Shown: positions 37,601 to 60,109, counted from the stretch's first letter. The stretch: 64,000 bases of DNA from Mobula hypostoma (GCF_963921235.1 NC_086097.1:40674001-40738000), one strand, 5' to 3'. The notes: generated from the sequence alone by a model not told the origin. A program made the numbers and translations.

Positions 37601-37808
37601 AGTAAGGTAGAAGGGCTGAAGTGTGTGTACCTCAATGCAAGAAGCATCAGGAACAAAGGTGATGAACTGAGAGCTTGGATACATACATGGAATTATGATG
37701 TAGTGGCCATTCCAGAGACTTGGCTGGCACCAGGGCAGGAATGGATTCTCAATTCCTGGATTTCAGTGCTTTAAAAGGGATAGAGAGGGCGGAAAAAGGG
37801 AAGAAGGG

Positions 37809-39605
37809 GTGACATTACTGGTCAGGGATACTATTACAGCTACAGAAAGGGTGGGTAATGTAGCAGGATCCTCTTTTAAGTCAATATGGGTGGAAGTCAG
37901 GAACAGGAAGAGAGCAGTTACTCTATTGGGGGTATTCTATAGGCCTCCTGGTAACAGCAGAGATACAGAGGAGCAGATTGGGAGGCAGATTTTGGACAGG
38001 TGCAAAAATAACAGGGTTGTTATCATGGGTGACTTTAACTTCCCTAATATTGATTGGCACCTGATTAGTTCCAAGGGTTTAGATGGGGCAGAGTTTGTTA
38101 AGTGTGTCCAGGACGGATTCCTGTCACAGTATGTGGACAGGCTGACTAGGCGGAATGCCATACTAGATCTAGTACTAGGTAATGAACCGGGTCAGGTCAC
38201 AGATCTCTCAGTGGGTGAGCATCTGGGGGATAGTGACCACCGCTCCCTGGCCTTTAACATTATCATGGAAAAGGATAGAATCAGAGAGGACAGGAAACTT
38301 TTTAATTGGGGAAAGGCAAATCATGAGGCTATAAGGCTAGAACTTGTGGGTGTGAATTGGGATGATGTTTTTGCAGGGAAATGTACTATGGACATGTGGT
38401 CGATGTTTAGAGATCTCTTGCGGGATGTTAGGGATAAATTTGTCCTGAGAAGGAAGATAAAGAATGGTAGGGTGAAGGAACCATGGGTGACAAGTGAGGT
38501 GGAAAATCTAGTCAGGTGGAAGAAGGCAGCATACATGAGGTTTAGGAACCAAGAATCAGTTGGGTCTATTGAGGAATATAGGGAAGCAAGAAAGGAGCTT
38601 AAGAAGGGGCTGAGAAGAGCAAGAAGGGGGCAAGAGAAGGCCTTGGCGAGTAGGGTAAAGGAAAACCCTAAGGCATTCTTCAATTATGTGAAGAACAAAA
38701 GGATGGCCGGAGTGAAGGTAGGACCGATTAGATATAAAGGTGGGAAGATGTGCCTGGAGGCTGTGGAAGTGAGAGAGGTCCTCAATGAATACTTCTCTTT
38801 GGTATTCACCAATGAGAGGGAACTTGATGATGGTGAGGACAATATGAGTGAGGTAGATGTTCTGGAGCATGTTGATATTAAGGGAGAGGAGGTGTTGGAG
38901 TTATTAAAATATATTAGGATGGATAAGTGCCCAGGGCCTAAGGGGATATTCCCCAGGCTGCTCCATGAGGCGAGGGAAGAGATTGCTGAGCCTCTGGCTA
39001 GGATCCTTATGTCCTCGTTGTCCATGGGAATGGTACCGGAGGATTGGAAGGAGGCGAATGTTGTCCCCTTGTTCAAAAAAGGTAGTAGGTATAGTCCGGG
39101 TAATTATAGAGCAGTGAGCCTTACGTCTGTGGTGGGAAAGCTATTGGAAAGGATTCTTAGAGATAGAATCTATGGGCACTTAGAGAATCATGGTCTGATC
39201 AGGGACATTCAGCATGGCTTTGTGAAGGGCAGCTCATGTCTAACAAGCCTGATAGATTTCTTTGAGGTGGTGACCAGGCATATAGATGAGGGTAGTGCAG
39301 TGGATGTGATCTATATGGATTTTAGTAAGGCATTTGACAAGGTTCCACATGGTAGGCTTATTCTGAAAGTCAGAAGGCATGGGATCCAGGGAAGTTTGGC
39401 CAGGTGGACTCAGAATTGGCTTGCTTGCAGAAGGCAGAGGGTCATGGTGGAGGGAGTACATTCAGATTGGAGGATTGTAACTAGTGGTGTCCCACAAGGA
39501 TCTGTTCTGGGACCTCTACTCTTCGTGATTTTTATTAATGACCTGGATGTGGGGGTAGAAGGGTGGGTTGGCAAGTTTGCAGAGATTGCAGAGGGACATT
39601 GGTAG
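37809..39605 (+). pseudogene. CR1 ORF2 (APE endonuclease + reverse transcriptase), non-functional
   Basis: Motifs YRPP, GDFN, LDLV, SDH, QHGF, DFSKAFD and [10 protein letters not shown] are present. There is an upstream frameshift near 37765. The FADD catalytic motif is cut by a deletion near 39582 ([10 protein letters not shown]). Confidence 0.88.
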
Positions 39606-40002
39606 GATGCAGAAGTGGGCTGAGAAGTGGCAGATGGAGTTCAACCAGGAGAAGTGTGAGGTGGTACATTTTGGAAGGACAAACACCAAGGCAGAGTACA
39701 AAGTAAATGGCATGATACTTGGTAGTGTGGAGGAGCAGAAGGGTCTGGGGGTACATGTCCACAGATCCCTGAAAGTTGCCTCACAGGTGGATAGGGTAGT
39801 TAAGAAAGCTTATGGGGTGTTAGCTTTCATAAGTTGAGGGATAGAGTTTAAGAGTCGTGATGTAATGATGCAACTCTATAAAACTCTGGTTAGGCCACAC
39901 TTGGAGTACTGTGTCCAGTTCTGGTCACCTCAGTATAGGAAGGATGTGGAAGCATTGGAAAGGGTACGGAGGAAATTTACCAGGATGCTGCCTGGTTAGA
40001 GA

Positions 40003-42144
40003 AACATAGAAACATAGAAAATAGGTGCAGGAGTAGGCCATTCGGCCCTTCAAGCCTGCACCGCCATTCAGTATGATCATGGCTGATCATCCAACTCAGA
40101 ACCCTGTACCAGCCTTCCCTCCATACCCCCGATCCCTTTGCCACAAGGGCCATATCTAACTCCCTCTTAAATATAGCCAATGAACTGGCCTCAACTGTTT
40201 CCTGTGGCAGAGAATTCCACAGATTCACCACTCTCTGTGTGAAGAAGTTTTTCCTAATCTCAGTCCTAAAAGGCTTCCCCTTTATCCTCAAACTGTGACC
40301 CCTCGTTCTGGACTTCCCCAACATCGGGAACAATCTTCCTGCATCTAGCCTGTCAAATCCCTTTAGGATTTTATACGTTTCAATCAGATCCCCCGTCAAT
40401 CTTCTAAATTTCAACGAGTATAAGCCTAGTTCATCCAGTCTTTCATCATATGAAAGTCCTGCCATCCCAGGAATCAATCTGGTGAACCTTCTTTGTACTC
40501 CCTCTATGGCAAGGATGTCTTTCCTCAGATTAGGGGACCAAAACTGCACACAATACTCCGGGTGTGGTCTCACCAAGGCCTTGTACAACTGCAGTAGTAC
40601 CTCCCTGCTCCTGTACTTGAATCCTCTTGCTGTAAATGCCAGCATACCATTCGCCTTTTTCACCGCCTGCTGTACCTGCATGCCCACTTTCAATGACTGG
40701 TGTATAATGACACCCAGGTCTCGTTGCACCTCCCCTTTTCCTAATCAGCCACCATTCAGATAATTATCTGTTTTCCTGTTTTTGCCACCAAAGTGGATAA
40801 CTTCACATTTATCCACATTAAATTGCCATGAATTTGCCCACTCACCTAACCTATCCAAGTCACCCTGCATCCTCTTAGCATCCTCCTCACAGCTAACACT
40901 GCCGCCCAGCTTCGTGTCATCCGCAAACTTGGAGATGCTGCATTTAATTCCCTCATCCAAGTCATTAATATATATTGTAAACAACTGGGGTCCCAGCACT
41001 GAGCCTTGCGGTACCCCACTAGTCACTGCCTGCCATTCTGAAAAGGTCCCGTTTATTCCCACTCTTTGCTTCCTGTCTGCCAACCAATTCTCTATCCACA
41101 TCAATACCATATCCCCAATACCGTGTGCTTTAAGTTTGCACACTAATCTCCTGTGTGGGACCTTGTCAAAAGCCTTTTGAAAATCCAAATCTACCACATC
41201 CACTGGTTCTCTCCTATCCACTCGACTAGTTACATCCTCAAAAATTCTATGAGATTCGTCAGACATGATTTTCCTTTCACAAATCCATGCTGACTTTGTC
41301 CGACGATTTCACTGCTTTCCAAATGTGCTGTTATCACATCATTGATAACTGACTCTAGCATTTCGCCACCACCGATGTTAGGCTAACCGGTCTATAATTC
41401 CCCGGTTTCTCTCTCCCTCCTTTTTTAAAAAGTGGGGTTACATTAGCCACCCTCCAATCCTCAGGAACTAGTCCAGAATCTAACGAGTTTTGAAAAATTA
41501 TCACTAATGCATCCACTATTTCTTGGGCTACTTCCTTAAGCACTCTGGGATGCAGACCATCTGGCCCTGGGGATTTATCTGCCTTTAATCCTCTCAATTT
41601 ACCTAACACCACTTCCCTACTAACATGTATTTCCCTCAGTTGCTCCATCTCACTAGACACTCTGTCCCCTACTATTTCCAGAAGATTATTTATGTCCTCC
41701 TTAGTGAAGACAGAACCAAAGTAATTATTCAATTGGTCTGCCATGTCCTTGTTCCCCATAATCAATTCACCTGTTTCTGTCTGTAGGGGACCTACATTTG
41801 TCTTAACCAGTCTTTTTCTTTTCACATATCTATAAAAGCTTTTACAGTCAGTTTTTATGTTCCCTGACAGTTTTCTCTCATAATCTTTTTTCCCCTTCCT
41901 AATCTCTTTTGGTTCCACACATAGCCGTCCACTCTGATTCTCTAAGGGACCAATTTTATCCCTCACTATCCTTTTGCTATTAATAAAACTGTAGAAACCC
42001 TTTGGATTTATTTTCACCTTACTTGCTAAAGCAACCTCGTATCTTCTTTTAGCTTTTCTAATTTCTTTCTTAAGATTCTTTTTACATTCTTTATATACGT
42101 CAAGCACCTCATTTACTCCATGCTGCCTATATTTATTGTAGATA
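40003..42144 (-). mobile_element. Chimeric 5'-truncated CR1 LINE 'B' inserted into element A
   Basis: RT ORFs 41355..42107, 40745..41266 (KFADDT) and 39977..40729, with a (TTTCTATG)n tail. TSD TTAGAGA at 39996-40002 and 42145-42151. The 5' ~245 bp derive from the C subfamily. Confidence 0.92.
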
Positions 42145-45100
42145 TTAGAGAGTATGCATTATGATCAGAGATTAAGGGAGCTAGGGCTTTACTCTTTGGA
42201 GAGAAGGAGGATGAGAGGAGACATGATAGAGGTGTACAAGATAATAAGAGGAATAGATAGAGTGGACAGCCAGCGCCTCTTCCCCGGGCACCGCTGCTCA
42301 ATACAAGAGGAAGGTTTTTTACTCTGAGAGTGGTTGGTGCGTGGAATGCACTGCCTGAATCAGTGGTGGAGGCAGATACTCTAGTGAAGTTTAAGAGACT
42401 ACTAGAAAGGTATATGGAGGAACTTAAGGTGGGGGCTTATATGGGAGGCAGGGTTTGAGGGTTGGCACAACATTGTGGGCCGAAGGGCATGTACTGTGCT
42501 GTACTATTCTATGTTCTATGTTCTATGTTGACTGTTCCTAATCAGACCCTGTCTATCCAGATAATTATACATACCATCTCTAAGATTACTTTCCATTAAT
42601 TTACCCACCACTGATGTCAAACTTACAGGCCGATAATTGCTAGGTTTACTCTTAGAACCCTTTTTAAACAATGGAACCACATGAGCAATATGCCAATCCT
42701 CTGGCACCATCCCTGTTTCTAATGACATTTGAAATATTTCTGTCAGAGCCCCTGCTATTTCTACACTAACTTCCCTCTTGGTCCCAGGGAATATCCTGTC
42801 AGGACCTGGAGACTTATCCACTTTTATTTTCCTTAAAAGCTCAATTACTTCCTCTTCTTTAGTCATCATAGTTTCCATAACTTCTCTTCCTGTTTCCTTT
42901 ACCTTACACAATTCAGCATCCTTCTCCTTAGTGAATAACAAAGAAAAGAAGTTGTTCAAAATCTTCCCCATCTCTTTTGGTTCCACACATAGCTGTCTAC
43001 TCTGATTTTCTGAGGGACCAATTTTATCCCTCACTATCCTTTTGCTATTAATATAACTGTAGAAACCCTTTGGATTTATTTTCACCTTACTTGCTAAAGC
43101 AACCTCGTATCTTCTTTTAGCTTTTCTAATTTCTTTCTTAAGATTCTTTTTACATTCTTTATATACCTCGAGCACCTCATGCTGCCTATATTTATTGTAG
43201 ATATCTCTCTTTTTCTGAACCAAGTTTCCAAAATCCCTTGAAAACTATAGCTCTCTCAAACTTTCAAACTTTCCTTTCAACTTAACAGGAACATGGAGAT
43301 TCTGTACCCTCAAAATTTCACCTTTAAATGACCTCCATTTCTCTATTACATCCTTCCCATAAAACAATTTGTCCCAATCCACTCCTTCTAAATCCTTTTG
43401 CATCTCCTCAAAGTTAGCCTTTCTTCAATCAAAAATCTCAACCCTGGGTCCAGGCCTATCTTTCTCCATAATTATATTGAAATGAATGGCATTGTGATCA
43501 CTGGACCCGAAGTGCTCCCCAACACATACCTTCGTCACCTGACCCATCTCATTCCCTAACAGGAGATCCAACACTGCCCCTTCTCCAGTTGGTACCTCTA
43601 TGTATTGCTGCAAAAAACAATCCAGCACACATTTTACAAACTCCAAACCATCCAGCCCTTTTACAATATGGGCTTCCCAGTCCAGGTGTGGAAAATTAAA
43701 ATCTCCCACAATCGCAACCTTTTGTTTACTACAAATATCTGGTATCTCCTTACAAATTTGCTCCTCCAATTCTCGCTCCCCATTAGGTGGACTATAATAC
43801 ACCCCTATAAGCGTCAGTACACCTTTCCTATTCCTCAATTCCAGCCAAATAGCCTCCCTAGACGAGCCCTCTGATCTATCCTGCCAGAGCACTGCTGTAA
43901 TATTTTCTCTGACAAGCAATGCAACACCTCCCCCTCTTGTCCCTCCAATTCTATCACACCTGAAGCAATGAAATCCAGGAATATTTAGTTGCCAATCATA
44001 CCGCTCCTGCAACCATGTTTCACTAATAGCTACAACATCATACTTCCAGGTATCAATCCATGCTCTAAGCTCATCTACCTTTCTTACAATGCTCATAGCA
44101 TTAAAATAATTGCATTTAAGAAATTTTCCACCTCTTTCTCTCTGTTTATTACTAACAGTGCAAACAACTTTACTAACTCCTTTTTCTTCCTTCTCCCCTA
44201 CATCTGTTCCTACACTCTGGTTCCCCTCCCCCCTTGTATCTAGTTTAAATCCACTGGAGCCTCTTGAGCAAACCTACCTGCAAGGATATTTGTCCCCCTC
44301 CAGTTCAGATGTAAACTGTCCCGCCGGAACAGGTCCCACCTTCCCTGGAAAACTGCCCAATTATCTATAAATCTGAAGCCCTCCCTCCTGCACCATGTCT
44401 TCAGCCACGTGTTGATCTGCGCTATCTTACTATTTCTAAACCCGCCTGCATGTGGCACTGGTAGCAATCCTATGATTGCTATCCTGGAAGTCCTGTCCTT
44501 TAACTTGGCACCTAACTCCCTATACTCACCTTTCAGGACCTCCTCACTCTTCCTACGCACGTCATTGGTCCCTACATGGACCACGACATCCGGCTGCTCA
44601 CCCTCCCTGTTGAGAATACTGAGAACCTGATCCGAGATATCGCGAACCTTGTCACCAGGGAGGCAACAGACCATCCGGGATTCTCGATCTCTTCCACAGA
44701 ACCTCTTATCTGTCCCCCTAACTATCGAATCCCCTATCACTACTGCTTTCTTCTTTTCCCTCCTTCCCTTCTGAGCTGAGGGTCCAGTCTCGGTGCCGGA
44801 GACGTAACCACTGCAACTTGTCCCTGGTAGGTCGTCCCCATCAACAGTATCCTGAATGATACTTATTATTGGTGGGAACGGCCACAGGGGTGCTCTGATC
44901 ATTATGTCTATTCCCCTTCCCTCTCCTGACAGTCACCCAGATACCTGTCTCCTGACTCTTAGGGGTGATTATCTCTCTGTAACTCCTGTTTATTTCTGCC
45001 TCTGCCTCCCAAATGATCCGAAGTTCATCCAGCTCCAGTTCCCTAACTTGGTTTGACAGGAGCTGCAGTTGGATGCACCTTTTACAGGTGTAGTCATCAG

Positions 45101-46528: not shown

Positions 46529-46808
46529 TCCCTTTCCCCCTTCCCTTTCCCCCTTCCCTTTCCCCCTTCCCTTTCCCCCTTCCCTTTCCCCCTTCCCTTT
46601 CCCCCTTCCCTTTCCCCCTTCCCTTCCCCCTTCCCTTTCCCCCTTCCCTTTCCCCCTTCCCTTTCCCCCTTCCCTTTCCCCCTCCCCTTTCCACCTCCCC
46701 TTTCCCCCTCCCCTTTCCCCCTCCCCTTTCCCCCTCCCCTTTCCCCCTCCCCTTTCCCCCTCCCCTTCCCCCTCCCCTTTCCCCCCTCTCCCCCCTCTCC
46801 CCCTCCTC
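46529..46808 (+). repeat. Almost pure polypyrimidine minisatellite (~13-bp unit TTTCCCCCTTCCC grading to TTTCCCCCTCCCC)
   Basis: Read directly: about 280 bp of C/T with a single A interruption. Confidence 0.97.
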
Positions 46809-49603
46809 TTTGGCATGTTCAGTGCCGTTGGTCAGGCTTTAGGCAGTACAAAAGAGAATAACATGAGATGTTCACCCACAAAAACTGGTATCAGAATAGT
46901 GTTCAAGGCCCACACACAATTATAGGCTCTCCATCCCGGACCTACTGTGCTGACTAGGACTGTCAGATTGCCACCATTAGGAATCCTAGTTAGAAGGTGG
47001 GCAATCAGTCAGTTTTAGAATGATATCCATTAAAGGACTGGAAACACATTAATGAACTTACGATTTTCCTCTAACAACTAAACGAACAGCAGACATGCTT
47101 GATACAAGTATCTCCAAGTAATTGATCTTGTTCGGTTTGAGCTACTAGGGTAGTTGAATAAGAAGTACAAGTGATTAGCGGTATTTGCCTAATGTCAAGG
47201 AGTGCTGAAAATGAGTGGATGTAAAGTGGGAAGCACACCCGTAGGTGGAGTCTTATCTCACAGAAAGGAAGTTGATTGTGGTTGTTGGAGGTTTCAATCC
47301 ATCATTGCAGAGCTCCTTGGGACAGTGTCCTGTGACCAGCCATCTTCAACTAATTCTTCAATGACCTTCCTGCATTTTAAGGTTAAAAGTGGGAATATTT
47401 GTTTGCCGATGTTTGTATGGTATTCAATTTCATTTGCAGCTTGTCGTTATGTGAAGCATTCCATGCCTGCATGCAGCAGAATTTAGACACCATTCGTGCT
47501 CATGAAGATAAGTGGCAATTAACATTTGTACACCAAAAGTGCCCTTCTGTAACCATCTCCCACAGGAATATATTGTATGTTCCTACTCTTGACATTCACA
47601 TTACCTTACTTACATCATCAATGTCCTTTGTCATCGCTGGCCTGAAGCTTGACTGAAACAGCCACACAAGCACTGTGGTCAGAGACACAAGTGAATACAC
47701 TCCACTTGTCTGGCTGAGTAGAAATCTTAAAAAAAACTTGCACCATCCAGGAAAAAAAATCCTTTCATGATTGACCCCCTAATAAATATAATTAATATTA
47801 ACTTGCCAGGTTCTAACCCACTATTGCATACTCTTGATTCTGAAAAGAAGGAATGCTTCTTCTCATAACTGATAACTTGGAGCAATATTATTTTCTTCTG
47901 TCTCAGTGCTTGGAGGCTGCCCGCTTTTATTTGCCTGCCATTTCCTTCTGTTATTACACCAGTTTCTACCACCTTGATTCCCTCTCCTACCACTTCTCTG
48001 TCACCTTGCCGTTCTCACTGGTCAATGCAGCTGTATACACAAAGTCTTGTCGCTTTCCTGAGCAGGTAGGGCAGCAGGTGAAAGAGCAGTATAGGTTTGT
48101 GCACTCCAGATCTCGCCCAACCCAGTGAAGCAGCTGACTTATCTTGTTTCTCTTTCACTGGGTCTTCTTACCCTGGCAGCCGTGCTGGGAAAAGACCAGA
48201 GCAGACAGGGGATGGAGAAGCTGCTTGCTGCAGACAGACATTGATTGAGTAATTCAAGATAGCTGCAACTAATCACATCAGGACAGGAGTGGGTTATACA
48301 CTCGGGTGAGGAACTGCACTTTAAGACATGCTGATGAATTTTGACAATTGCAATATAATCTCCATTATCTGTGCTCTAATTATCTGCTATCCCAATTTAT
48401 CCAGCAGAACTTCTGTGGAAAAAAAAGCCTAACTCTGGATGTTACCTCATTAAATCGTCCACTAAAACCAATCTGTTCTCAGCAAGCACAATATGCAGCG
48501 TGAACTGAACCATATAGGCCAATGTTAATCAGCGTCATGTCACAAAAGAAAATGACTGAATGCAGTTTGTTTGCTTTCATGCTATACTATGTGCAAATGT
48601 AAACTTTGGAGGTCATTATTCAATAACTCCCATTAATTCCACATGAGAGATGTCCCTCCGTCCTAGCAGATAAAGGAACTTCCATCCTGAGCATTAGATC
48701 AGGTAGTCTTTGTTTCTTGGGTGCTATATAGTCCAATCAGGATTTTATCTGGAATAATAAGTTCCAGAGGAACTCATGCCTGATAGAAATTGGATCTGGC
48801 CTTTCCATGCACTATCGATATTAAATTGTCTGATGTTCTCCTGACATCAGCCACCTATCAAATAATATTGTGATGAACTTTTTCCCATATTTTTGCTCGC
48901 AGCAACTTAAGTTGAAGCAGAAAGTACCACACTGTGACTGTTTTGGTAGAACTTATGATCATGTCGTGCTATTCTGTTCCTCTTCATTCATGAGACAAGG
49001 CCAGAGAAGTGACTGCTTTGCTCAGCACCTACTCTCTATCCACTGTGGCCATGTGGAGCTCCTGATTCAAAAGCCATTTATATTCCCCTCCCTAGTCCCA
49101 CACCGATCTACCTGTCCTCTGCCCCCTTGACTACCAGGGTGAGGCTAAGTGCAAACTGGAGGAACAGCTTGTCACGTTCTGCCCGAGTAGTCCACAACCT
49201 GACAGCACGGATGGTGAATTTTCCAATTTTGTATAACCTGCTCCCACCCTGTGCCTTCCTCTCTCCTGATCTAAACAGATGCTGTCATGCATACCCCTCC
49301 TTCCTAACAAATCTCCCACATCTCCTATCACCCAGTTTCTTCCACCTCCTTCCACCTACTCCATATGCCTATCATGTACATTGGGTCCCATGCTTCCAGT
49401 ATACCTATCTACCCTTCCACTTCTCTATTGATTTCCGTGCTCCCTTTCCTATCTGATTAAATCATCCCACCACATTTTTGTTGTGTCCGGCTATTATCTC
49501 CCACCCTCTGTCACTATTTCTATCCTCCTCCATTTGACTCCATCTGCCAATCATCTCCTCTTTTCATGGATCTACCTATCTGGCCCTGAGCCGCCCCCTC
49601 ATC

Positions 49604-49845
49604 TCTCATGTTTGCAACTCCAAAACATAAAGCTAAAAGAAAAGATGGAGAGTCCAAAATGTGAGTCTAGCTTAGTTTTACTTTAAGTGAGGCAACCACA
49701 TATCAAGTGGTGACATGATAATGTATGCCATTTAAGTACTTTTATATATAACCCACAATGCATTTTGTAAATGACAAAGAATGCTTAATCAAACAATATA
49801 TTTACAATATAACTCAAATATTACTGAAATATTAAATACACAACA
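49604..49845 (-). repeat. 3' LTR
   Basis: Aligns with 52376-52623 (both end in GAAATATTAAATACACAACA on +). Adjacent to the PPT at 49846-49860. Confidence 0.88.
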
Positions 49846-50134
49846 CTCTTCCCTGCTTAGCTATGAACTCCAACTCAATATAGAATACATCTCAACTACT
49901 GCATATAGACAGTATATTATATAATACAACTACTATAAACAAGCATCCACAACATAGTAGATTTTAAATTGTCCCATTCAGTCCTTAAGATTTAATTGCT
50001 GTGGAGGTTTTCTTACTTTTGTGGGATGACAACTTTCCCAACAAGGGGGATCACTCCATGTGGTTGTATTAGTTGACTCTGAGACTGCAGGAAGTGGTTC
50101 TGACAGCTCTAGACACCTTTCTTCTCCTTCTCTC

Positions 50135-50806
50135 AGCTTTTCTTTCTGGATTTACTTCAATAACTTCTCTCTTGACCCCAACTTCATTCTCTTTCTTTTT
50201 CTTTCTCTCATTCCTTCTCTCTTTCACACCTTTCCCTTTCTTGTTCTCATTCTTTCTCTCTCTCTCCTCCCTTTTTAACTTCTTGTCTTTCATTTACTCA
50301 CCTATTTCTTCTTTCTAGATAGTGCATCTTGATCTTGTGAAGGTATATTTAGTTACTGGAGTATTCTATTAGTAGTCCTTCTGTTGCTTTCTTTAATATC
50401 TGATCTGTCCTCTTGGTTTCCTCATCCACAACATCATCATCTGATTTTTTTTATCTTCTTTGACTTCTTTCTTTTTAGCCTTCCATTCATAGAGCTGGGC
50501 TTTGGTCTTTACATCTACTTTTACATGCAGCTTTATGTCTCCTATTTGAAGTTCATGCAATAATCTTAATGCACACATAGTAGATGATAGTTCTTTATAG
50601 TCAAAAAAAAGTCGAATGCTTGCAAGTTTCCTGAAGCTCCTTGAACTCTCTTCCAGCCAGTTTTCACAAGTTGCTGCCTCATTATCGGAAGCTTTCTCAG
50701 ATATGGTGCCTACAAAAATTGTTGTAGTCAGATATCTGCTTTCATCACTTTCACAATTCATTGGTCCAATATGCTTTCCAATCAGAGACACAGAGGTTGG
50801 AACCAA
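50135..50806 (-). pseudogene. RBM25: Intronless RBM25 (RNA-binding motif protein 25) fragment: RRM and start of the RE/RD-rich region
   Basis: Translations give VPTSVSLIGKHIG, TTTIFVGTISEKASD, WKRVQGASGNLQAF (alternative frame), YKELSSTMCALRLLHELQIGDIKLHVKVDVKTKAQLYEWKAKKK, DEETKRTDQILKKATEGLLIEYSS and PSQDQDALSRKKK. These match vertebrate RBM25 as recalled (TTTVFVGNISEKASD...WKRVQGASGKLQAFGFCEYKEPESTLRALRLLHDLQIGEKKLLVKVDAKTKAQLDEWKAKKK). Frameshifts and stops are present. Confidence 0.9.
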
Positions 50807-51810
50807 CTCCTGTTATCCCTCTGTTGAGGGACCGTTCATGGTGCATAGCATGGAGATAGATGTGTCATCATCCAGCCCCTTCCTTAATTTCCTTTAATTG
50901 ACTCTATTGCAGAGGATGTGAGGCACATATAATCAATGGATCTCTATCAAATTGTAGTTGTCTCAGTCAATCATGGCCCTACAATGGTGGCTGTCCTGTT
51001 TTTGCCACATACAAGCCCAATGTGGCTTGTTGGTTGTTGTATTTCACTGTTACAAATGTCATTGCCACAGGATTTACATTTTCTTAACTATAAATTCTTA
51101 GATATCTGCAGGCTTCAGTTTAGTATTGTTGAAATGCCAGCCAAACCCATTTTGTGGAATGACAAACAGCCGAGCCAGTGTCCAATTCCATTTTAATAAA
51201 TTTGCTGTTCACTTGTGTAAGTCATATGGCTTATCTATTGTTAATTTTCACATTTTAAGTTTTGAGGCTACCTAGTCCTGCATCACCCTCATCATTATCA
51301 CATTTTTCATCAACAGAAAGTTTAGTGCTCTTTTTGAATCTTCAGTTTGATTTTTTTTAGCATTTTCTCTTCCTTCTGCATTCTATTTATTTTGTCCGCC
51401 TGGCAAGCTCCTTTTATGTGTCCTACTTGTTGTTTTTCTGCAAGTTTCACCAGGAAACCTGCGTTGGAATGGTGTATATGAGCCCCTGCCACAACAGTAA
51501 ATCCATTTGTTTTACTCATCTCTGGCTGCTGTTTCCATTAGTGCAGTTATTTCAACTGCTCTTTTAAATGTAAGTCATGCTTCAGTTTTGGAATGCTTTT
51601 TTGTAAAATTACACAAACTAAAGGATCTCTCAGTGCATCATTAAGCTCATCATTAACTGACTGAGAAAATCTCTTCAATTCTGCAACATACACTGAAATG
51701 GACTCCCCTTCCTTTTGATTCTGCAACATTCTGCAATCTGAAACATTCTAAAACATTCTAAATCATTCTGCAATCAACAATGGTTTTGGTTCAAAAGGTT
51801 CTTGTATTAC

Positions 51811-51908
51811 TATCTTGTATAGTACTAAGGTTTTTTATTACTATTTAATTATTTATGGTGCAACTGTAACGAAAACCAATTTCCCCTGGGATCAATAAAG
51901 TATGACTA
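51811..51908 (+). mobile_element. Short LINE/SINE 3'-tail insertion inside the LTR element's gag
   Basis: Ends in AATTTCCCCTGGGATCAATAAAGTATGACTA. TSD TGTATTAC at 51803-51810 and 51909-51916. Confidence 0.7.
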
Positions 51909-52375
51909 TGTATTACATTCACTATATCAGCAATATCATTTCAGTTAGTTTGATTGAAGCAGTTAAATTTCTAAGCAAACTGTAAATTTTTAAATCCAAT
52001 ACACTCAGCAAAACCGACACTTGCTTCTCATTGGCTATTTCATTAGCTCAATTATTGCAAGTATTGCTCAATTAGTTCAGTATACATATTTCAGTTATCA
52101 TTTATGTAATTGAACACATGAATCTTTCTAGTGCAGCCATCACCTGATACTCACTGTTTATAAACCCATGAATTCTTCTGTTTTCTACCTTTGTTTTAAA
52201 CTTGATCATATTTACTTTTGCAAAGAAGACATGCTGATTCATAGGAAAAACAACATACTGTGCTGATTTTTTAACATGTCCGCTTCTCGCTGCGCTTTTT
52301 TTTAGCTCGAATGTCTCACTACACTTCAGCAGGTAGGTAGTTGTCTGGGGTTAATTTTAAAAATACCTCATTGCC

Positions 52376-52623
52376 TGTTATGCTTGTAACTACAGAACCT
52401 AAAACTAATTTAAAGGAAAAGACAGCGAGTCAGAAATGCAAGTTTAACCTAGTTTTTATTTTATGCGAGGCACACACGTATCACATGGTGGTGTGATGGT
52501 GTATGCCATTTACATAGCTTTACAGGTAACCTGCAATGCATTATATAAGCAACAAAGAATACTTAATTAAACCATATATTTACAGTATAACTCAAAAATT
52601 ATTGAAATATTAAATACACAACA
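52376..52623 (-). repeat. 5' LTR
   Basis: TGTTA...CAACA boundaries on +. On the minus strand it is followed by the PBS-like GGCAATGAGGTA (52364-52375). Confidence 0.88.
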
Positions 52624-52919
52624 TCATCTCTTTATACTGCCTAACTACCCTCTACTCTTTAGATCCAGGGGAAGGGTCTTGATTGTTCATTTCCCATCAC
52701 AGATACTCCCTGACACACTGATTTCTCCTGCAACTTGCTTTTTGATCCAAATTCCACTACCTTCAGTCTCTTGTGTTTCCACACTAACCAATTGTTGTAA
52801 GGGACTCTGGGATAATATACAATGTTTTCTTTTGTCTACTTAGCTATATAAGTACTTTTTAGAATTTGTTCCTCAGAACATTGGTGGACGCCCTCCATTA
52901 CTGGAGGCACCATCCTGGT

Positions 52920-55290
52920 TATAAGACCATAAAATACAGGATCAGAATTAGGATATTTTGCCCATTGAGTGTCCGCTGCCATTCAATCATAGCTGATCCT
53001 TTTTTTCCCTCATCCTCCACCCCATTCCCCGGCCTTCTCCCCATAATCTTTGATGCCATATCCAATCAAGAATCTATCAATCTCTGCCTTAAATACACCC
53101 AACGACCTGCCCTCCACAGCATCATGTGCCAACAGATTCCATAAATTCATCACCCTCTGGCTGAAGAAATTTCTCTGCATCTCTGTTTTGAATGGACACC
53201 CCTCTATCCTGAGGCTGTGCGCTCTTGTCCTAGACTGTCCCACCATGGGAAATATCCCTTCCACATCTATTCCGACCAGGCTTTTCAACATTCGAAAGGT
53301 TTCAATGAGATTGCCCCCTGATCCTTCTAAATTCCAGTAAGTACAGACCCAGAGTCATGAAACGTTCCTTGTATGATAACCCTTTCATTCCTGGAATTGT
53401 TCTTGTGAACCTCCTCTGGACCCTCTCCAATGCCAGCACATTACTTCTAAGATGGGGAGCCCAAAATTGTACATAATACTCAAGGTAAGGCCTTGGATTT
53501 TCTCCCCATTTAGAAAATAGTCCGCACATTTATCTCTACTACCAAAGAGCATGACCATGCATTTTCCAACATTGTATTTCATTTGCCACTTTCTTTCCCA
53601 TTCTCCTAATCTGTCTAAGTCCTTCTGCATCTTACCTGTTTCCTCAACACTACCTGGCCCTCCATCAGTCTTCATATCAACTGCAAACTTGGTAACAAAG
53701 CTATCTATTTCATCATCTAAATCATTTATATACAGCATAAAAAGAAGTGGTCCCCACACCAACCCCTGCAGAACACCACTAGTCACTGGCAGCCAACTAG
53801 ATAAGAATCCTTTTATTCCCACTCGCTGCCTCCAACCAATCAGCCAATGCTCCAACCATCTTAGTAACTTTCCTATAATACCACGGGCTCTTGTCCCAGG
53901 CTTCTGAAAGTCCAAATATACAACATCCACTGCATCCTCCTTGCCTATTCCACTTGTAATCTCCTCAAAGAATTCCAAAAGGTTTGTCAGGCAGGATTTT
54001 TTCTGATGGAAACCATGCTGACTTGTATACTATCTTGTCCTATGTCACCAAGTACTCCCATCACCTCGTCCTTAACAATTGACTCTAACATCTTCCCAAC
54101 CACTGAGGTCAGGCTAACTAGTCCATAATTTCCTTTCTGCTGCCTTCCTTCTTTCTTAAAGAGTGGAGTGACATTTGCAATTTTCCAGTCCTATGGTCCA
54201 AGGATTTTTGAAAGATCATTTCTAATGCTACCACAATCTCTAACGCTACCTCTTTCAGAACCCTAGGGTGCAGTTCATCTGGTCTGGGTGACTTATGTAC
54301 TTCTAGGTCTTTCAGCTTTTTAAGTACCTTCTCCCTTATAATGGTAACTGCACCCACTTCTCTTCCTTCACACACTACAACATCTGGCACACTGCTTGTG
54401 TCTTCCACAGTGAAGACTGATGCAATATACTCATTTAGTTCATCTGCCATCTCCTCGTCCCCCGTTGTTATTTCTCTTGCCTCATTTTCTAGCAGTCCTT
54501 TATCCACTCTCATCTCTCTTTTATTTTTGATATTCTTGAAAAAGCTTCCAATATTATTTGCTAGCTTTCTTTCATATTTCATCTTTTCCCTTCTAATGAA
54601 TCTTTTAGTTGCTGTCTGTAGGTTTTTAAAAACTTCCCAATCCTCTATCTTCCCACTAATTTTTGCTTTGTTGTATGCCCTCTCTTTCGTTTTTACATTA
54701 GTTTTGACTTCCCTTTTCAGTCACAGTTGTACTATTTTGCCATTTGAGTATTTCTTTGTTTTAGGAATACATCTGAACTTTCCTTATTTTCCCCAGAAAC
54801 ACACACCATTGCTGCTCTGCTTACATCCCTACAAGCAGCTCCTTCCAATTTACTTTGGTCAACTCCTCTCTCATACCAGTGTATTTTCCTTTACTCCACT
54901 ACATCAGACTTTACTTTCTCCCTATCAAATTTCAAGTTGAACTGAAACGTATTGTGATCACTGTGTCCTAAGGGTTCTTTTCTATCATAATATTGCCCTT
55001 TTGACATGCCTTTTCTATTTCCTATTGTAATCTGTGGTCCATCTCCCAGCCACTGTTGGGAGGCCTGTATATAACTACCATCAGGATCCTTGTACCCTTG
55101 CAGTTTCTTAACTCAACCCACAAGGTCTCAACATCTTCAAATCCTATGTCACATCTTTCTACTGATTTGATGCCATTCTTTACCAGCAGAGCCACACATC
55201 CCCTCTGCCGACCTTCCAATCCCTCCAATACAACATGTATCCTTGGACTTTCAGCTCCTAACTACACCCATCCTTCAGCCACAATTCCAT
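52920..55290 (-). mobile_element. Degraded CR1 LINE (EN-RT and 3' UTR)
   Basis: ORFs 55022 (VIYRPPNS), 54118 (KSPRPDELHPRVLKE), 53385 (DVVYLDFQK, SGVLQGLVWGP), 53302 and 53010. Confidence 0.88.
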
Positions 55291-56117
55291 TATGGTTGGC
55301 CACTCAAGGTTAGTCAGGGACCTTAGGGAGGCAGGCATAGATATTCATTCAATGAAGAGCCTTCAGTGACAGCACTTCTGACCAACAAAGTACTGGGCTT
55401 TCTGAGGGCATTGTGTGTGCATTCCATCAGAGAATCATACCTCGCCTTGTGCTGAAGCTTAGATTGTTCTCTCCATGGATGCCAATCTCAAATTCATTAC
55501 CATGTGATCTTTCCAAATGACTGCAACAGGTCTTCACAACTCTCCAGGTGTTACATTAAATCACCCATCTTTCTCCTCCACAGTACCTCCCTACCCATTG
55601 CTGTGCAATAGAACATATCAGTGAATGTTTCCCTCAGACTGCAGTGTCAATGGTACCTTAATGAGCTACTGCGACCTCTGTGTGAAATGCACTCCCTTGG
55701 ATCAGCTTTAATGTTGAGGTTCAAGCATTGCTCAATTATTCAAAACTTTGGGCTTTCGCCCTACATCAATGTGTTACCGTCACTATTGTTACCACAGTAG
55801 CTAAGAGCATTGCACATAGCAACATACATATTGAGAGGCTAACATTTTAAGCAAATCAACTAATCATTCAACTGAGAAATCCACTTGAACGCCAACAGGA
55901 GTTCATTTTAAGGCATTATCAAAATCAACTGTTCTAAGGTGCAAATCTACAGCACATCTGGTAAGCTTTCAATAGGAGGGAGGCAATAATTAATTTAGAA
56001 TTCTGTACTAATATTCTCTGATCTAATCTTGTTACTTTCAATTCCTCATTTAAAAGGGGTAGGGGGAGAGCTACTAGAGAGGGAAGAAACATCAAGCAGA
56101 TCTTTCTTCTCAGTGTG

Positions 56118-58860
56118 TCATCGTCATCATCATTATGTGCAGTGTCATATGGTGTGGGTGATCATAGTCTTCCATCTGCCTTAATTTGTGAAGTTCTAAT
56201 AAGTACTCCAACACTTTGGCCTGTCCTTCCCTTGATGTAATTGATGAATGTCATGCACTGCCAACCGTGACTTTTTCTTCCATCAGTCTTTCCCGTCACT
56301 GCAAGATGTTTGAGCTACTCTTTCATCAGCATGTCCTAGAAATTGCAGCTGCCATTTCATAATTGATGATATCAACTCTCTTCTTAGTCCTGCTCCTTGC
56401 AACACTTTCTCATTTGTTACTCTGTCCTTCCATGATATTTTCATTATTCTTCTCACAAATCACATTTCTGCAGCTTCAAGCCTTCCCTCATTTTGTTTTG
56501 ATACTGTCCAACATTCACTTCCATTTGTTACTGTGGAATGAACATAGCACCACAACACGAGTTCCATACCAATAGAAATTATGTTATTCTTTAGTATCTT
56601 GCTCACTCGATTGTGCATTTAGCAATCCCAATCCTCCTCCTAATGTCAACGTTAGGTCTATTGTCAGATGTTATCAAGGTCCCTAAGTAATTGAACTTCC
56701 ATGTTTGCTTAATTGTTTTGTTGCCCACTTTCAGTTTGCATTTCTGTGTTTCTTTCTTCTTTCTGACAACCATACATTTGGTCTTCTAACAGTTGATGGT
56801 CAATTCTCTCTTTGCATTTACTTTGACAACTTTGGTATTTCTTGGAAATTCTCTTTAGAAGCAGCTATCAGCACTGTGTTGTTTGCCTATTGGAGGTTGT
56901 TCATATTGTTTCCAGCAATTATCACACCGGGAATACTGCTAATTTCTCTTCAACTTTTTTTGCTATAAAGGTTGAATAAGTCAGATGAGAGAACACAACC
57001 CTATGTGACTCCACTCTTAACCTGGACAAAATCACTTGTCTCATTTTCAACTCTCATTCCCGCTGTTTGTTCCCAATACAAATTTCTCATGAATCTGATA
57101 TCTTTCCCATTAATGTTTAAGTACTAAAGAATTTTTATAAGCTCTTCATGTTTCACCTTATCGAAATTCCCAGTGTAATTGATAAACCATGGGTATATGT
57201 CTTTCTGGATCTCTATGGCATGCTCACAAATCATTCTAAGGATGAAGGTTGCATTTTGTGCTCGATAATCTTCACTGACGCGTCACTGCTCTTGTGTGAT
57301 CTCTGATTTCATGCTTTTCCTTGCACTCAATGTGATGTTTCACAGCAGGACCCTCACAACACAACCTCCAATCCATTAGTGCGGTGCAACTCACATTCAA
57401 ACACTTGAGGATTTATCAGCAATGCAACAAATACCGACCCATCCATTTCCCCAGGCATTTCCCTGCCTTCACACATTTCATTTAGCAAATCTGTCAACCC
57501 TTCAACATCAAAATCCTCCAGCGTTTGAATCATTGCTATAGCAATGCCATCTGGTCCTAATACTTTATACTTTTTCATTTCCTCCTCTGCCACCCTAACT
57601 TCCAATTTCATTATTAGTGGGCCATTCATGTCCTAAGCATTTATTGTCCTCTCACTTCTTGTACCTTCAAACAAGTCGGCAATGTATTGAGTCCATCCAG
57701 TATACCAGCTTCCTTCATGAGCATCGATTCATCTCTCCCCCTCCAACACCCATGTACAAGAATTAACACCTGCGAGCATCCTCATCTTCCTGTACATATT
57801 GCCAGATTCCTTCAGTCTCTCTACTTCTCTGCACTCTTCATCCATCCATTACTCCCTCCATTCCCCAGATCTTTGCTCGATTTCTTTGTTTAAAGAGTCA
57901 CATTTGTCGCTGTTCGTTGGCATGATTCCCTGTCTTCTGTCATTAAATACAGAATTTCATCTGTCATTAATTTTTCTTCTTCTCTTTTCTCTTTTTCGGT
58001 ATCACTTCATTAGACATATCCACCGCTGCCCTTTTATATCTCAACCAGCCTGGTGTATTCTGCACTATCAGAGCCCCAAATCTAGCCCTCAGTGCAACAG
58101 TGAATTTCATCTTCGAGTCCAGATCTTTCACGCAAGCCAGGTCTAATTTGGTATTACCTCCAGACTTCCCTAACCATCTAAGCTTAACCTTCAGCTTGCG
58201 TATCAATGGAACATGGTCACTCTCACAGCCCACTCCTAGATATGCCTTGGACTGTTGCATGGCATTCCCAAAACACTTGCTGATTCTGATGTAGTCCATT
58301 TGATTGGTACCAATCTTCTGGGCTTCTCCAAGTCCACAGCCATCTTGTGTGCTGCTTGGACCATGTATTTGTTATTATCTGATCATTTGCGCAACACCGG
58401 TGAATCTCCCACCCCTGTCGTTCCTGGCTCCCAATCTAAACATGCCAACAAAGCCACCATCCTGCTGTTGTCCAACTCCAGCACCCATATCCTCCATCGC
58501 TATAACGATACCTTGTGATCTGTAGTGGTCCCTTGCTTCCTACAAGCTATCATAAAACCCTCTATATCCCCCTCACTACTATCAGCCTTTCGAGCACGCA
58601 CTACTATTATTAAAATGTTCATGGGTTGCCCTTGGAGTCTCACCAGCAGCACTTTGATGATTTGATAATGGCCAGCATCCCACAAGGAAGGCGTCTCTCA
58701 GCATCCAGCCCCATTCCCACACCTCATTCATATCCATCACCACCTGAATTGATAGCCTGTATTCACCAGAATCAAAGCATCCAGTCCTTTTCCACCTTGT
58801 CACACACATCCCCACGATGGTAACTTCCAAGCAAAAGCTTTTAATTGTTAACATGTGTGC
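56118..58860 (-). mobile_element. Older degraded RTE LINE
   Basis: (GAT)n-like tail at 56118. ORF fragments 57354 (KVLGPDGI..FECELHRT), 57967 (DYI..GCESDH) and 58500 (VRLQGQPMNILIIVV). Confidence 0.8.
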
Positions 58861-59004
58861 ATTTGATTTTGCTATTTTTTATAATATTACTTTTTTAATT
58901 ATTTCATTGTTTTTAAATCATCTGAATTATTTTTGATTGTCAGTGCTATTCAGAAACATTCATCATTTTTAACAGTTTAGGCAGACAGTCAATCTAGTAA
59001 TTTA

Positions 59005-59372
59005 GATGATTGACTTTATTGCTTATATCCTTCATATACATGAGGAGTAAAACATTACATCTCTGTCTAAATGTGCAATGTGCAATTATAGTAATTTATA
59101 ATAAATATTATGTACAACAGGATAGTCAATATAACATAGAAGTACAGTTGCATCAGCAGGAATTAAGCAGTCTGGTGGCTTGTGGAGGAAGCTGTCCCGG
59201 AGCCTGTTGGTCCTGGCTTTTACGCTGCAATACCATTTCCCTGATAGTAGCAGCTGAAACAGTTTGTGGTTGGGGTATTTGGGTCTCCAATGATCCTTCG
59301 GGCCCTTCTTACACACACGTCTTTGTAAATGTCCTGAATAGTGGGAAGTTTACATCAACAAATGCTCTGGGC
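59005..59372 (-). mobile_element. Rex1 LINE 3' end (same family as 14990-15345)
   Basis: Colinear with 14996-15345. Encodes HKLFQLLLSGKWY..RTNRLRDSF. Confidence 0.8.
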
Positions 59373-59574
59373 AGTAGATACACTCCATTTCCCACTTCAC
59401 ATTCTCCAGATTTCCAACTTGATAAAGAGTTCTCACATTTCACCTTGCTAATTTGATGTTATCTTTGTTGCAGACAGTAGCCTGATAATGATTGAGCCTC
59501 ATCGGTCATACGAGTGTCTCCTCTGAGTGAGGGATCACTGTACCTGGGGAAGACACCTTTCACAGTGTTGCTCT

Positions 59575-59825
59575 TATTCTTTTCTCTATCCATGACCATG
59601 AACTTGTTCCACAGAAGTGGTTTGTAATTGCCCCCTTCTGGGTGGTGTCTTTACAACATGGGTGACCCCAGCCATTATCAATGCCCTCAGAGATTTTCCG
59701 CCTGGCATCAGTGATCACATAACCAGGATTTGTGACATGCCCTGGCTGCTCATATGACCATCCACCAGCTGATCCCGTGGCTGATCCCCCTTTGATAGAG
59801 ATGTAACTCCACCCTGCCACCCAGA
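59575..59825 (-). mobile_element. RTE-related SINE-like fragment
   Basis: The minus strand has AGAAGGGGGCAATTACAAACCACTTC, similar to the GAAGGCAATGGCAAACCAC motif of RTE/BovB-type elements and to 24595-24612 in the RTE 5' region. Confidence 0.45.
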
Positions 59826-60109
59826 ATGTAATCTGAATATTCCTTTGCTTCTTGTGGGAGTCCTTCCCTCAAAGTTTGTGATGGATATTCGAAGAGCAGA
59901 GCAGTGAACAGCAGTAGAAAAGAATCATAAGATAATTAAATGTGTTGCATGGGGAACCGTAGAGAACCGTAGCAGGAACAACTTGACAACTAAATATTTT
60001 ACAATCAGCTTCTCTGCTGTAGTGATGTTTTAAATGTTAATGGGAAAAGCATTATGTGCTGTCTACTTGTAATCAGTGTTTATTTCCATTATGCTTTGCA
60101 ACATGTATG

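Follow-up and report, generated by a model that had tools for sequence, protein, structure and literature searches.

Within a 64,000-nucleotide (nt) stretch of Mobula hypostoma DNA (GCF_963921235.1 NC_086097.1:40674001-40738000; hereafter the window), we characterized a 3.0 kb long terminal repeat (LTR) element on the minus strand (positions 49599-52628) in which most of pol is missing and an intron-free piece of the host gene RBM25, which encodes a splicing factor, stands in its place. This is very probably an old, dead copy of a non-autonomous Ty3/Gypsy-like family that was founded by a double template switch onto a spliced RBM25 mRNA. The anatomy of an LTR element is preserved on both sides of the insert, the insert is of spliced origin, short microhomologies lie at both of its joins, and copies with the same junctions form a multi-copy family.

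A repeat search recovered a single direct-repeat family (49676-49845 and 52454-52623, 81% identity over 170 nt ungapped), and global alignment gave a 5′ LTR of 248 nt (52376-52623) and a 3′ LTR of 242 nt (49604-49845) that are 78.5% identical (Kimura two-parameter distance, K2P, 0.26; here and below, features of the element lie on the minus strand unless stated). The 5′ LTR ends TG...CA, and the 3′ LTR ends TG...GA, which is a decayed terminus. A perfect 5-bp target-site duplication (TSD), which reads GATGA on the minus strand and TCATC on the plus, adjoins both LTRs, the upstream copy (52624-52628) being identical on direct reading to the downstream copy (49599-49603); both the LTR pair and the TCATC duplication that an initial annotation had placed at 49599-52628 therefore hold. 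The polypurine tract proposed there is likewise present, with AAGCAGGGAAGAG (49846-49858) directly abutting the 3′ LTR and a purine-rich tract at the matching place in the sister copies L004, L006, L007 and L008. The suggested primer-binding site (PBS) fared less well: the putative PBS-like stretch GGCAATGAGG does follow the 5′ LTR (52366-52375), but it lacks TGG, is loosely conserved (GTGCTGATGAG in L007, GTGACAACAAGG in L004, again without TGG) and is not recognised as a PBS.

Between the 5′ LTR and the insert lie a leader and gag remnant (51200-52365), colinear with the sister copies L004 and L007 and including a zinc-knuckle remnant near 51400-51500, and then a protease remnant (50868-51199; MELDTGSAV, with DTGS at 51182-51171). 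We identify the latter as protease because of its DTGS motif and its homology to the stretch that lies just upstream of reverse transcriptase (RT) in autonomous-type copies (L028, L029, L032 and L033). The zinc knuckle is supported by near-threshold zf-CCHC matches at the corresponding place in two sister copies, L002 and L004 (18.9 and 20.2 bits vs. a cut-off of 20.8), and by nothing else. These gag, knuckle and protease remnants had been called from the window, where a Pfam scan of the open reading frames (ORFs) returned only chance-level matches to unrelated DUFs for 2 of 10 (E 0.08-0.1); their backing comes instead from the DTGS motif and the sister copies. Downstream of the insert, the element resumes with the extreme C-terminal integrase tail (49981-50117, EERCLELSEP...KVRKPPQQLNLKD, stop at 49978-49980), found in the ORF list and ~50 nt shorter than in other copies. 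When the genome was searched with the C-terminal integrase part of L030, this tail was located elsewhere, and its identity is confirmed, as is the return to integrase that had been proposed, because an integrase C-terminal region precedes the same sequence in the non-chimeric copies L030 and L037-L040.

We identify the insert as RBM25 because of its protein match, its alignment to the host locus and the RNA recognition motif (RRM) of its sister copies. Its longest open stretch, 139 amino acids (50396-50812), matches teleost RBM25 (best E = 9.5e-20, 53% identity, 81% of the query), in agreement with the first assignment; seven of the nine protein matches are named RBM25 or RBM25b, and one more is RBM25 in UniRef and hypothetical in NCBI. 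RRM_1 was detected in L002, L003, L004, L006 and L008, at or above the cut-off in four of the five, while a PDB sequence search with the RBM25 ORF of the window gave chance-level matches only (E 0.7-0.9). The assembly containing the window (3.48 Gb, 200 contigs) has one locus that matches the PWI-containing C-terminus of RBM25, on the same chromosome ~59 Mb from the window (C1:99.79 Mb), and tblastn of full RBM25 placed the host exons on the minus strand from C1:99840627 to 99791418.

BLASTN of the element against 160 kb of this locus matched window blocks 50856-50809, 50806-50683, 50655-50619, 50620-50460, 50439-50305, 50318-50187 and 50148-50118 to host exons, the matches starting at C1:99832632, 99829157, 99827230, 99824417, 99819407, 99810682 and 99809260, respectively. 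The blocks are contiguous in the window and separated by introns of 1.3-9 kb in the host gene, and all of the inferred host exon borders are AG/GT. The RBM25-derived segment (50118-50860, aligned to C1:99832632-99809230) consists of the tail of exon 2b, a 48-nt exon (exon X, 50857-50810), exons 3, 4, 5, 6 and 8, and the start of exon 9. The initial annotation had rightly called an intronless insert, and many host exons are indeed spanned with no introns; its limits of ~50806-50135 had to be corrected, however, to 50860-50118, since the exon 2b tail and the 48-nt exon had been missed and the 5′ boundary lies ~54 nt further upstream. The same blocks recur in eight other chimeric copies, with larger deletions in L006 and L031. 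Because L008 retains every block, including exon 7, the founder had eight intron-free joins over nine exons, and its RBM25 content is reconstructed from these copies as the 48-nt exon and exons 3-8, preceded by the end of exon 2b and followed by the first 28 nt of exon 9.

The window lacks exon 7 (host 99813200-99813117), as do L002-L005, and the exon is kept in L007 and L008. This deletion (window 50318-50305 vs. host exons 6 and 8) occurs with or without the loss of adjacent purine-rich bases, and its ends fall within CTAGAA(A)GAAGAAA-like repeats, an arrangement more suggestive of slippage, or of another homology-guided switch, in a sub-lineage than of exon skipping. The window copy is a member of this sub-lineage, in which a small piece between purine-rich repeats was later lost. 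The 48-nt exon, in turn, lies outside the canonical coding sequence, in the intron between the exon end at 99838439 and the exon start at 99829160 (host C1:99832586-99832633, minus strand); it is in frame, has a strong acceptor and a CAG/GTAAC donor (slashes mark boundaries throughout), and the joined host exons that include it form one open frame across the entire captured piece. Because it is present in every chimeric copy, even though it is absent from the teleost RBM25 proteins that we used, it is probably an RBM25 exon that is either unannotated or alternative.

Around the RBM25 piece, neither a poly(A) tract nor a separate TSD was found, as the initial annotation had also noted, so that these hallmarks of an L1-type pseudogene are missing. 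Their absence follows from the position of both ends within coding exons: the piece starts in coding exon 2b and stops in coding exon 9, where it abuts integrase-tail sequence.

Both fusion points can be read to the base. At the 5′ junction, autonomous-type copies read ...GATGATGCCACAGCAGTGTTC... and chimeras read ...GATGATGCCACAACT/GTCTCCATGC..., the host exon 2b ends ...CCTGCCACAACT/gtaagt, and the next exon begins GTCTCCATGC; the join thus falls within a 7-nt match, TGCCACA, three bases ahead of the exon-exon junction. The window retains a decayed copy of this microhomology at 50861-50867, placed by aligning chimeric and autonomous copies with the host exon end. At the 3′ junction, the chimeras read ...GGAGAAGAAAGGTGTCC, where host exon 9 has ...GGAGAAGAAAAGGGAT and the element has ...TTAGAGAAGAAAGATGTCC; in these alignments a 9-nt match, GAGAAGAAA (50118-50126 in the window), is common to RBM25 exon 9 and the integrase tail. 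Microhomologies of such length are rarely met by chance (P = 0.0007 for at least 7 nt and 0.00008 for at least 9 nt in 200,000 simulated junctions drawn from the same element and cDNA sequences), and their presence at both joins fits the signature expected of a double template switch. Everything from RT to most of integrase is missing between the joins, which bears out the proposal that the insert replaced RT, RNase H and integrase. Contigs of autonomous-type copies part from the window at 50125/50126, where they have loose ends; no contig piece listed in four runs (85% likeness, with many paralogous copies) bridges a junction or the insertion site. Across the 5′ join, the translation of L008 continues without a stop (...KLRKVLDDATT/VSMLFTMNRCPTDGKQ/VLVPTSVPP...), and the protease frame runs on in frame into RBM25 because pol (..DDAT..) and RBM25 (..PATT..) share one codon phase at GCC ACA.

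That the chimera belongs to an amplified family carrying a host gene, as first suggested, is borne out by identical junctions at hundreds of loci. An 801-nt probe laid over both junctions gave 2847 first-look candidates, and 40 of these were scored: the window itself, at E 0, and 39 others, all at E ≤ 1.4e-106 and with 73-79% identity. With at most 3 mismatches, the 30-mer spanning the 5′ junction had 507 matches on many contigs, the 30-mer spanning the 3′ junction had 192 (this probe, taken from the window, carries two private changes), and the 30-mer for an unbroken protease-to-RT sequence had 1398; the controls, a reversed 30-mer for the 5′ junction, gave 0 in each case, and the three counts are minimum numbers. 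Seven fetched copies are colinear with the window from gag and protease through RBM25 to the 3′ LTR, and L004 shows both LTR ends together with its own 5-bp flanking repeat, TTCTC/ATCTC.

The family also contains relatives that carry RT, RNase H and integrase and share the protease and integrase-tail sequences with the chimeras. Six copies were chosen by a gag-protease probe: four run into RT, one is an RBM25 chimera, and one (L030; C75:9516100-9517650, minus strand) is an internal-deletion derivative. In L030, the integrase C-terminal region, the tail and the LTR follow immediately after protease and the first part of RT, with no host sequence, making it a second kind of non-autonomous derivative in the family. 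In L028+L034, a protease-homologous end is followed by RVT_1 (E = 2.7e-21), RT_RNaseH (1.4e-27) and rve (5.1e-9), and the integrase tail is not present; in L032 and L033, which are interrupted copies, the tail was not found by homology (estimated stretches L035 and L036). Against PDB, this RT was best matched by Ty3 RT (4OL8, E = 2.6e-19), also by Ty3 Gag-Pol (7Q5B), and next by caulimovirus RT (1.7e-12) and foamy virus (~1e-5), with the limit that BEL and Copia may be missing from PDB. We therefore label the family Ty3/Gypsy-like, its RT being closest to Ty3 among solved structures.

We propose that a reverse transcriptase copying element RNA in a virus-like particle, with a spliced RBM25 mRNA packaged alongside, would first have switched from the integrase tail to the RBM25 mRNA at the 9-nt match GAGAAGAAA, and would then have switched from RBM25 back to the element at the 7-nt match TGCCACA, just past protease. 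Such a pass would have lost ~2.6 kb (RT, RNase H and nearly all of integrase) and replaced it with ~1 kb of RBM25 cDNA, leaving the LTRs, leader, gag, protease, integrase tail and polypurine tract in the chimera. With these parts retained, the chimera could have been packaged, reverse-transcribed and integrated by the proteins of autonomous relatives, presumably those with an unbroken protease-to-RT sequence, and mobilisation in trans may have carried it to at least ~500 loci. The joins themselves would, on this proposal, have been made by reverse transcriptase at the RNA level. We consider it improbable that they were instead made at the DNA level, by microhomology-mediated end joining or recombination of an element cDNA or integrated copy with an RBM25 cDNA. 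Such end joining, too, typically shows microhomologies of 7 and 9 nt. This route, however, needs two precise joins in the same orientation that replace an internal segment, and a free spliced cDNA as well, whereas copy-choice with a co-packaged mRNA does all of this in one pass and is the route documented for chimeras of this kind (PMC5131818).

Several points nevertheless weigh against double template-switch capture and trans-mobilised spread. Sequence alone cannot separate an RNA-level template switch from microhomology-mediated joining of cDNAs. The 3′ fusion, as read from decayed copies, is probably out of frame with the integrase tail; no recognisable PBS follows the 5′ LTR in the window, L007 or L004; and the window's own ORFs have no relevant Pfam or PDB match, the matches returned being at chance level (E 0.08-0.9). 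Copy numbers come from 30-mers with at most 3 mismatches and from first-look candidates rather than from a full census, detailed examination covered nine chimeric copies, and both ends with a TSD were seen in only two of the nine, the window (5/5 bases) and L004 (4/5). Finally, the sampled autonomous-type copies are all decayed or internally deleted and no intact one was seen, so it is by inference that we speak of mobilisation in trans.

Chimeric copies are 84-88% identical to the host exons vs. 73-79% identical to one another, as seen when copies made in a burst go on to decay independently, and the LTR divergence of the window copy agrees with this. Substitutions common to at least five of the nine copies, which separate the founder from the present host gene, are biased across codon positions 1/2/3 (6/4/24, p = 2e-5), a bias that is to be expected if most of them arose in the host gene, which is under constraint. 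Those common to two to four copies (32/30/28, p = 0.88) and those private to one copy (118/124/121, p = 0.93) are evenly spread, and each of the nine copies carries 1-4 in-frame stops. Because of this lack of codon-position bias and the stops in all copies, the RBM25 part is best seen as a passenger, with its substitutions giving no sign of selection.

The same data bear on the idea that the RRM, fused to Gag and protease, was functional and selected, whether as an aid to RNA binding and packaging or through interference with host splicing or silencing. The in-frame 5′ fusion, a copy that keeps a 271-amino-acid open frame through the RRM, and the share of chimeras among junction-typed copies (507 of 1905) all speak for it. 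An in-frame join, however, arises by chance one time in three and here follows from the GCC ACA codon phase, and with even codon positions in both the shared and private classes and stops in nine of nine copies, we think selected function very unlikely. On a more novel reading, the founder would have encoded a Gag-protease-RBM25 fusion with a complete host RRM, and the chimera would have gained a replicative edge from borrowed RNA binding or from interference with RBM25. We give it little credence, but if true, the edge would explain why about a quarter of the family goes back to one capture; the interference could have acted, for example, via small RNAs from hundreds of near-identical copies; and the family would offer a natural example of a transduced splicing-factor domain that raised the fitness of a retroelement, as well as a fossil record of the unannotated 48-nt RBM25 exon.

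We also weighed a route like that of retroviral oncogene capture, in which an element inserted upstream in RBM25, read-through followed, splicing joined a cryptic pol donor to the 48-nt exon at its acceptor, and one non-homologous recombination then restored the 3′ end. DNA homology between the chimeras and the host appears to stop exactly at that acceptor, and the removed element sequence starts with GT, as such a route would have it. The upstream host exon end, however, reads ...GCCACAACT/gtaagt, and both the ACT that stands just before the 48-nt exon in the chimeras and the GCCACA that precedes it match this end, which puts the join inside the exon, in the 7-nt microhomology, rather than at a splice site. 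A splice-mediated 5′ join was dropped once this exon end, which accounts for ACT, had been read. The putative donor (GCA/GTGTTC) is moreover weak and the relevant host intron holds no element remnant, and we regard the whole route as highly improbable. To a nested processed pseudogene made by a long interspersed nuclear element (LINE), that is, an RBM25 retrocopy within the element followed by an independent pol deletion and amplification of the composite, we assign next to no weight: LINEs with endonuclease and RT domains are abundant in the window, but the piece has no poly(A) or own TSD, is truncated at both ends in coding exons (2b and 9) of a gene with many more exons, and has both ends coinciding with element microhomology and the edges of the pol deletion. 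The initial annotation had likewise preferred double template-switch capture to a LINE-made pseudogene, and besides the 7- and 9-nt microhomologies, none of the findings that it had named as refuting this reading was obtained.

Among earlier cases, maize Bs1, rice LTR-borne retrocopies and HERV-K/FAM8A1 are not known to exceed a low copy number or a single locus. They share with the chimera spliced host fragments inside LTR elements and, for FAM8A1, microsimilarity at the joins (as cited in PMC5131818). For LTR-mediated retrocopies, which are described there from flies, mosquito, zebrafish, chicken and mammals, the median microsimilarity is 6 bp, and internal ORFs are replaced, not interrupted (PMC5131818). 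In that study (Tan et al., 2016, Genome Res), the retrocopies resemble ours in being internal, flanked by both LTRs, intronless, truncated, free of poly(A) and able to act as non-autonomous LTR elements, and in having microsimilarity at both fusions (median 6 bp there vs. 7 and 9 nt here); they differ in that only two are given there as inserted at two or more sites, whereas one capture here has at least 507 copies, and in that our case concerns another vertebrate host with a 3.5-Gb genome and RBM25 as the captured gene. An L1-type processed pseudogene is likewise an intron-free copy of a host mRNA, but here there is no poly(A), own TSD or mRNA 3′ end, and the piece is bordered by element sequence that shows microhomology and was mobilised with LTRs.

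Acutely transforming retroviruses have lost pol or env to a spliced host piece, often in frame with gag, and are helper-dependent. Here, in contrast, the element is not a retrovirus, since no env was seen, there is no oncogene, the product is a germ-line repeat family, and the 5′ join is a microhomology switch within an exon and not a read-through or splice product, as considered for oncogene transduction by retroviruses (Swain and Coffin, 1992, as cited in PMC5131818). Vertebrate LTR elements have also gained cellular domains, RNA-binding (cold-shock) ones among them, as a study of bird endogenous retroviruses (ERVs) reports (He et al., 2025, PMC12287698); that study covers 107 domains in 254 ERVs of 121 species, whereas we describe one capture with hundreds of copies in one genome, in a Ty3/Gypsy-like element and not an ERV. 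LTRs are not mentioned in a paper on amplified fish retro-pseudogenes (PMC12758807). None of the papers that our literature search turned up connects RBM25 with a transduced LTR element; the family may already be in a repeat library under a name.

The mechanism, LTR-mediated retroposition, is known, but amplification on this scale is unusual for a vertebrate: such retroposition can seed a repeat family of at least 500 copies bearing ~1 kb of splicing-factor coding sequence, here with both breakpoints resolved to the base. In practice, gene prediction will call spurious RBM25 or RRM paralogues from these copies, and RBM25 reads will map to many places. When the burst took place, the genome would have held hundreds of near-identical RBM25 exon copies in sense and antisense, and an essential gene could have been affected by cross-reacting transcripts or small RNAs from these. 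The exon structure of an ancient RBM25 transcript is also preserved in the copies, along with the in-frame 48-nt exon, whose splice sites are still intact in the host gene.

The gag remnant of the window copy holds a ~100-nt piece of an unrelated, extremely abundant short repeat (tttattgatcccaggggaaattggttttcgttacag...; 51815-51910, approximate ends, strand unassigned), which is absent at this place in L004 and L007 and sits at other insertion places in sister copies (L002:935-1028, L008:1070-1133). Contig depth in the bin 51841-51961 was ~55,000-60,000 in runs X1 and X5, 186 in X9 and 1,188 in X12. A different dispersed repeat (...CCATAGGAGCAGAATTAGGCCATTTGGCCCATCG...) interrupts the 3′ LTR of L007 (L007:2934-3051) and is found in host RBM25 introns too (C1:99822438-99822553). 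Upstream of host RBM25, two LTRs of the family lie in antisense (C1:99876650-99876881 and 99906405-99906635), at 72-75% identity to the LTRs of the window, and the copy at 99906635 is probably a solo LTR because its similarity does not extend past the end of the LTR.

Transposable elements are abundant throughout the window. Positions 36275-44932 hold a cluster of LINE remnants, with a 633-amino-acid ORF carrying endonuclease and RT on the plus strand (37704-39602) and, on the minus strand, RT and endonuclease preceded upstream by an ORF (44243-44932) whose domain is GDSL/SGNH lipase-like and which we take to be an esterase-type ORF1 as in CR1/L2-like LINEs. Between this cluster and the chimera, a tandem array (46529-46785) repeats the 13-nt unit TCCCTTTCCCCCT in ~20 copies with 95% matches.

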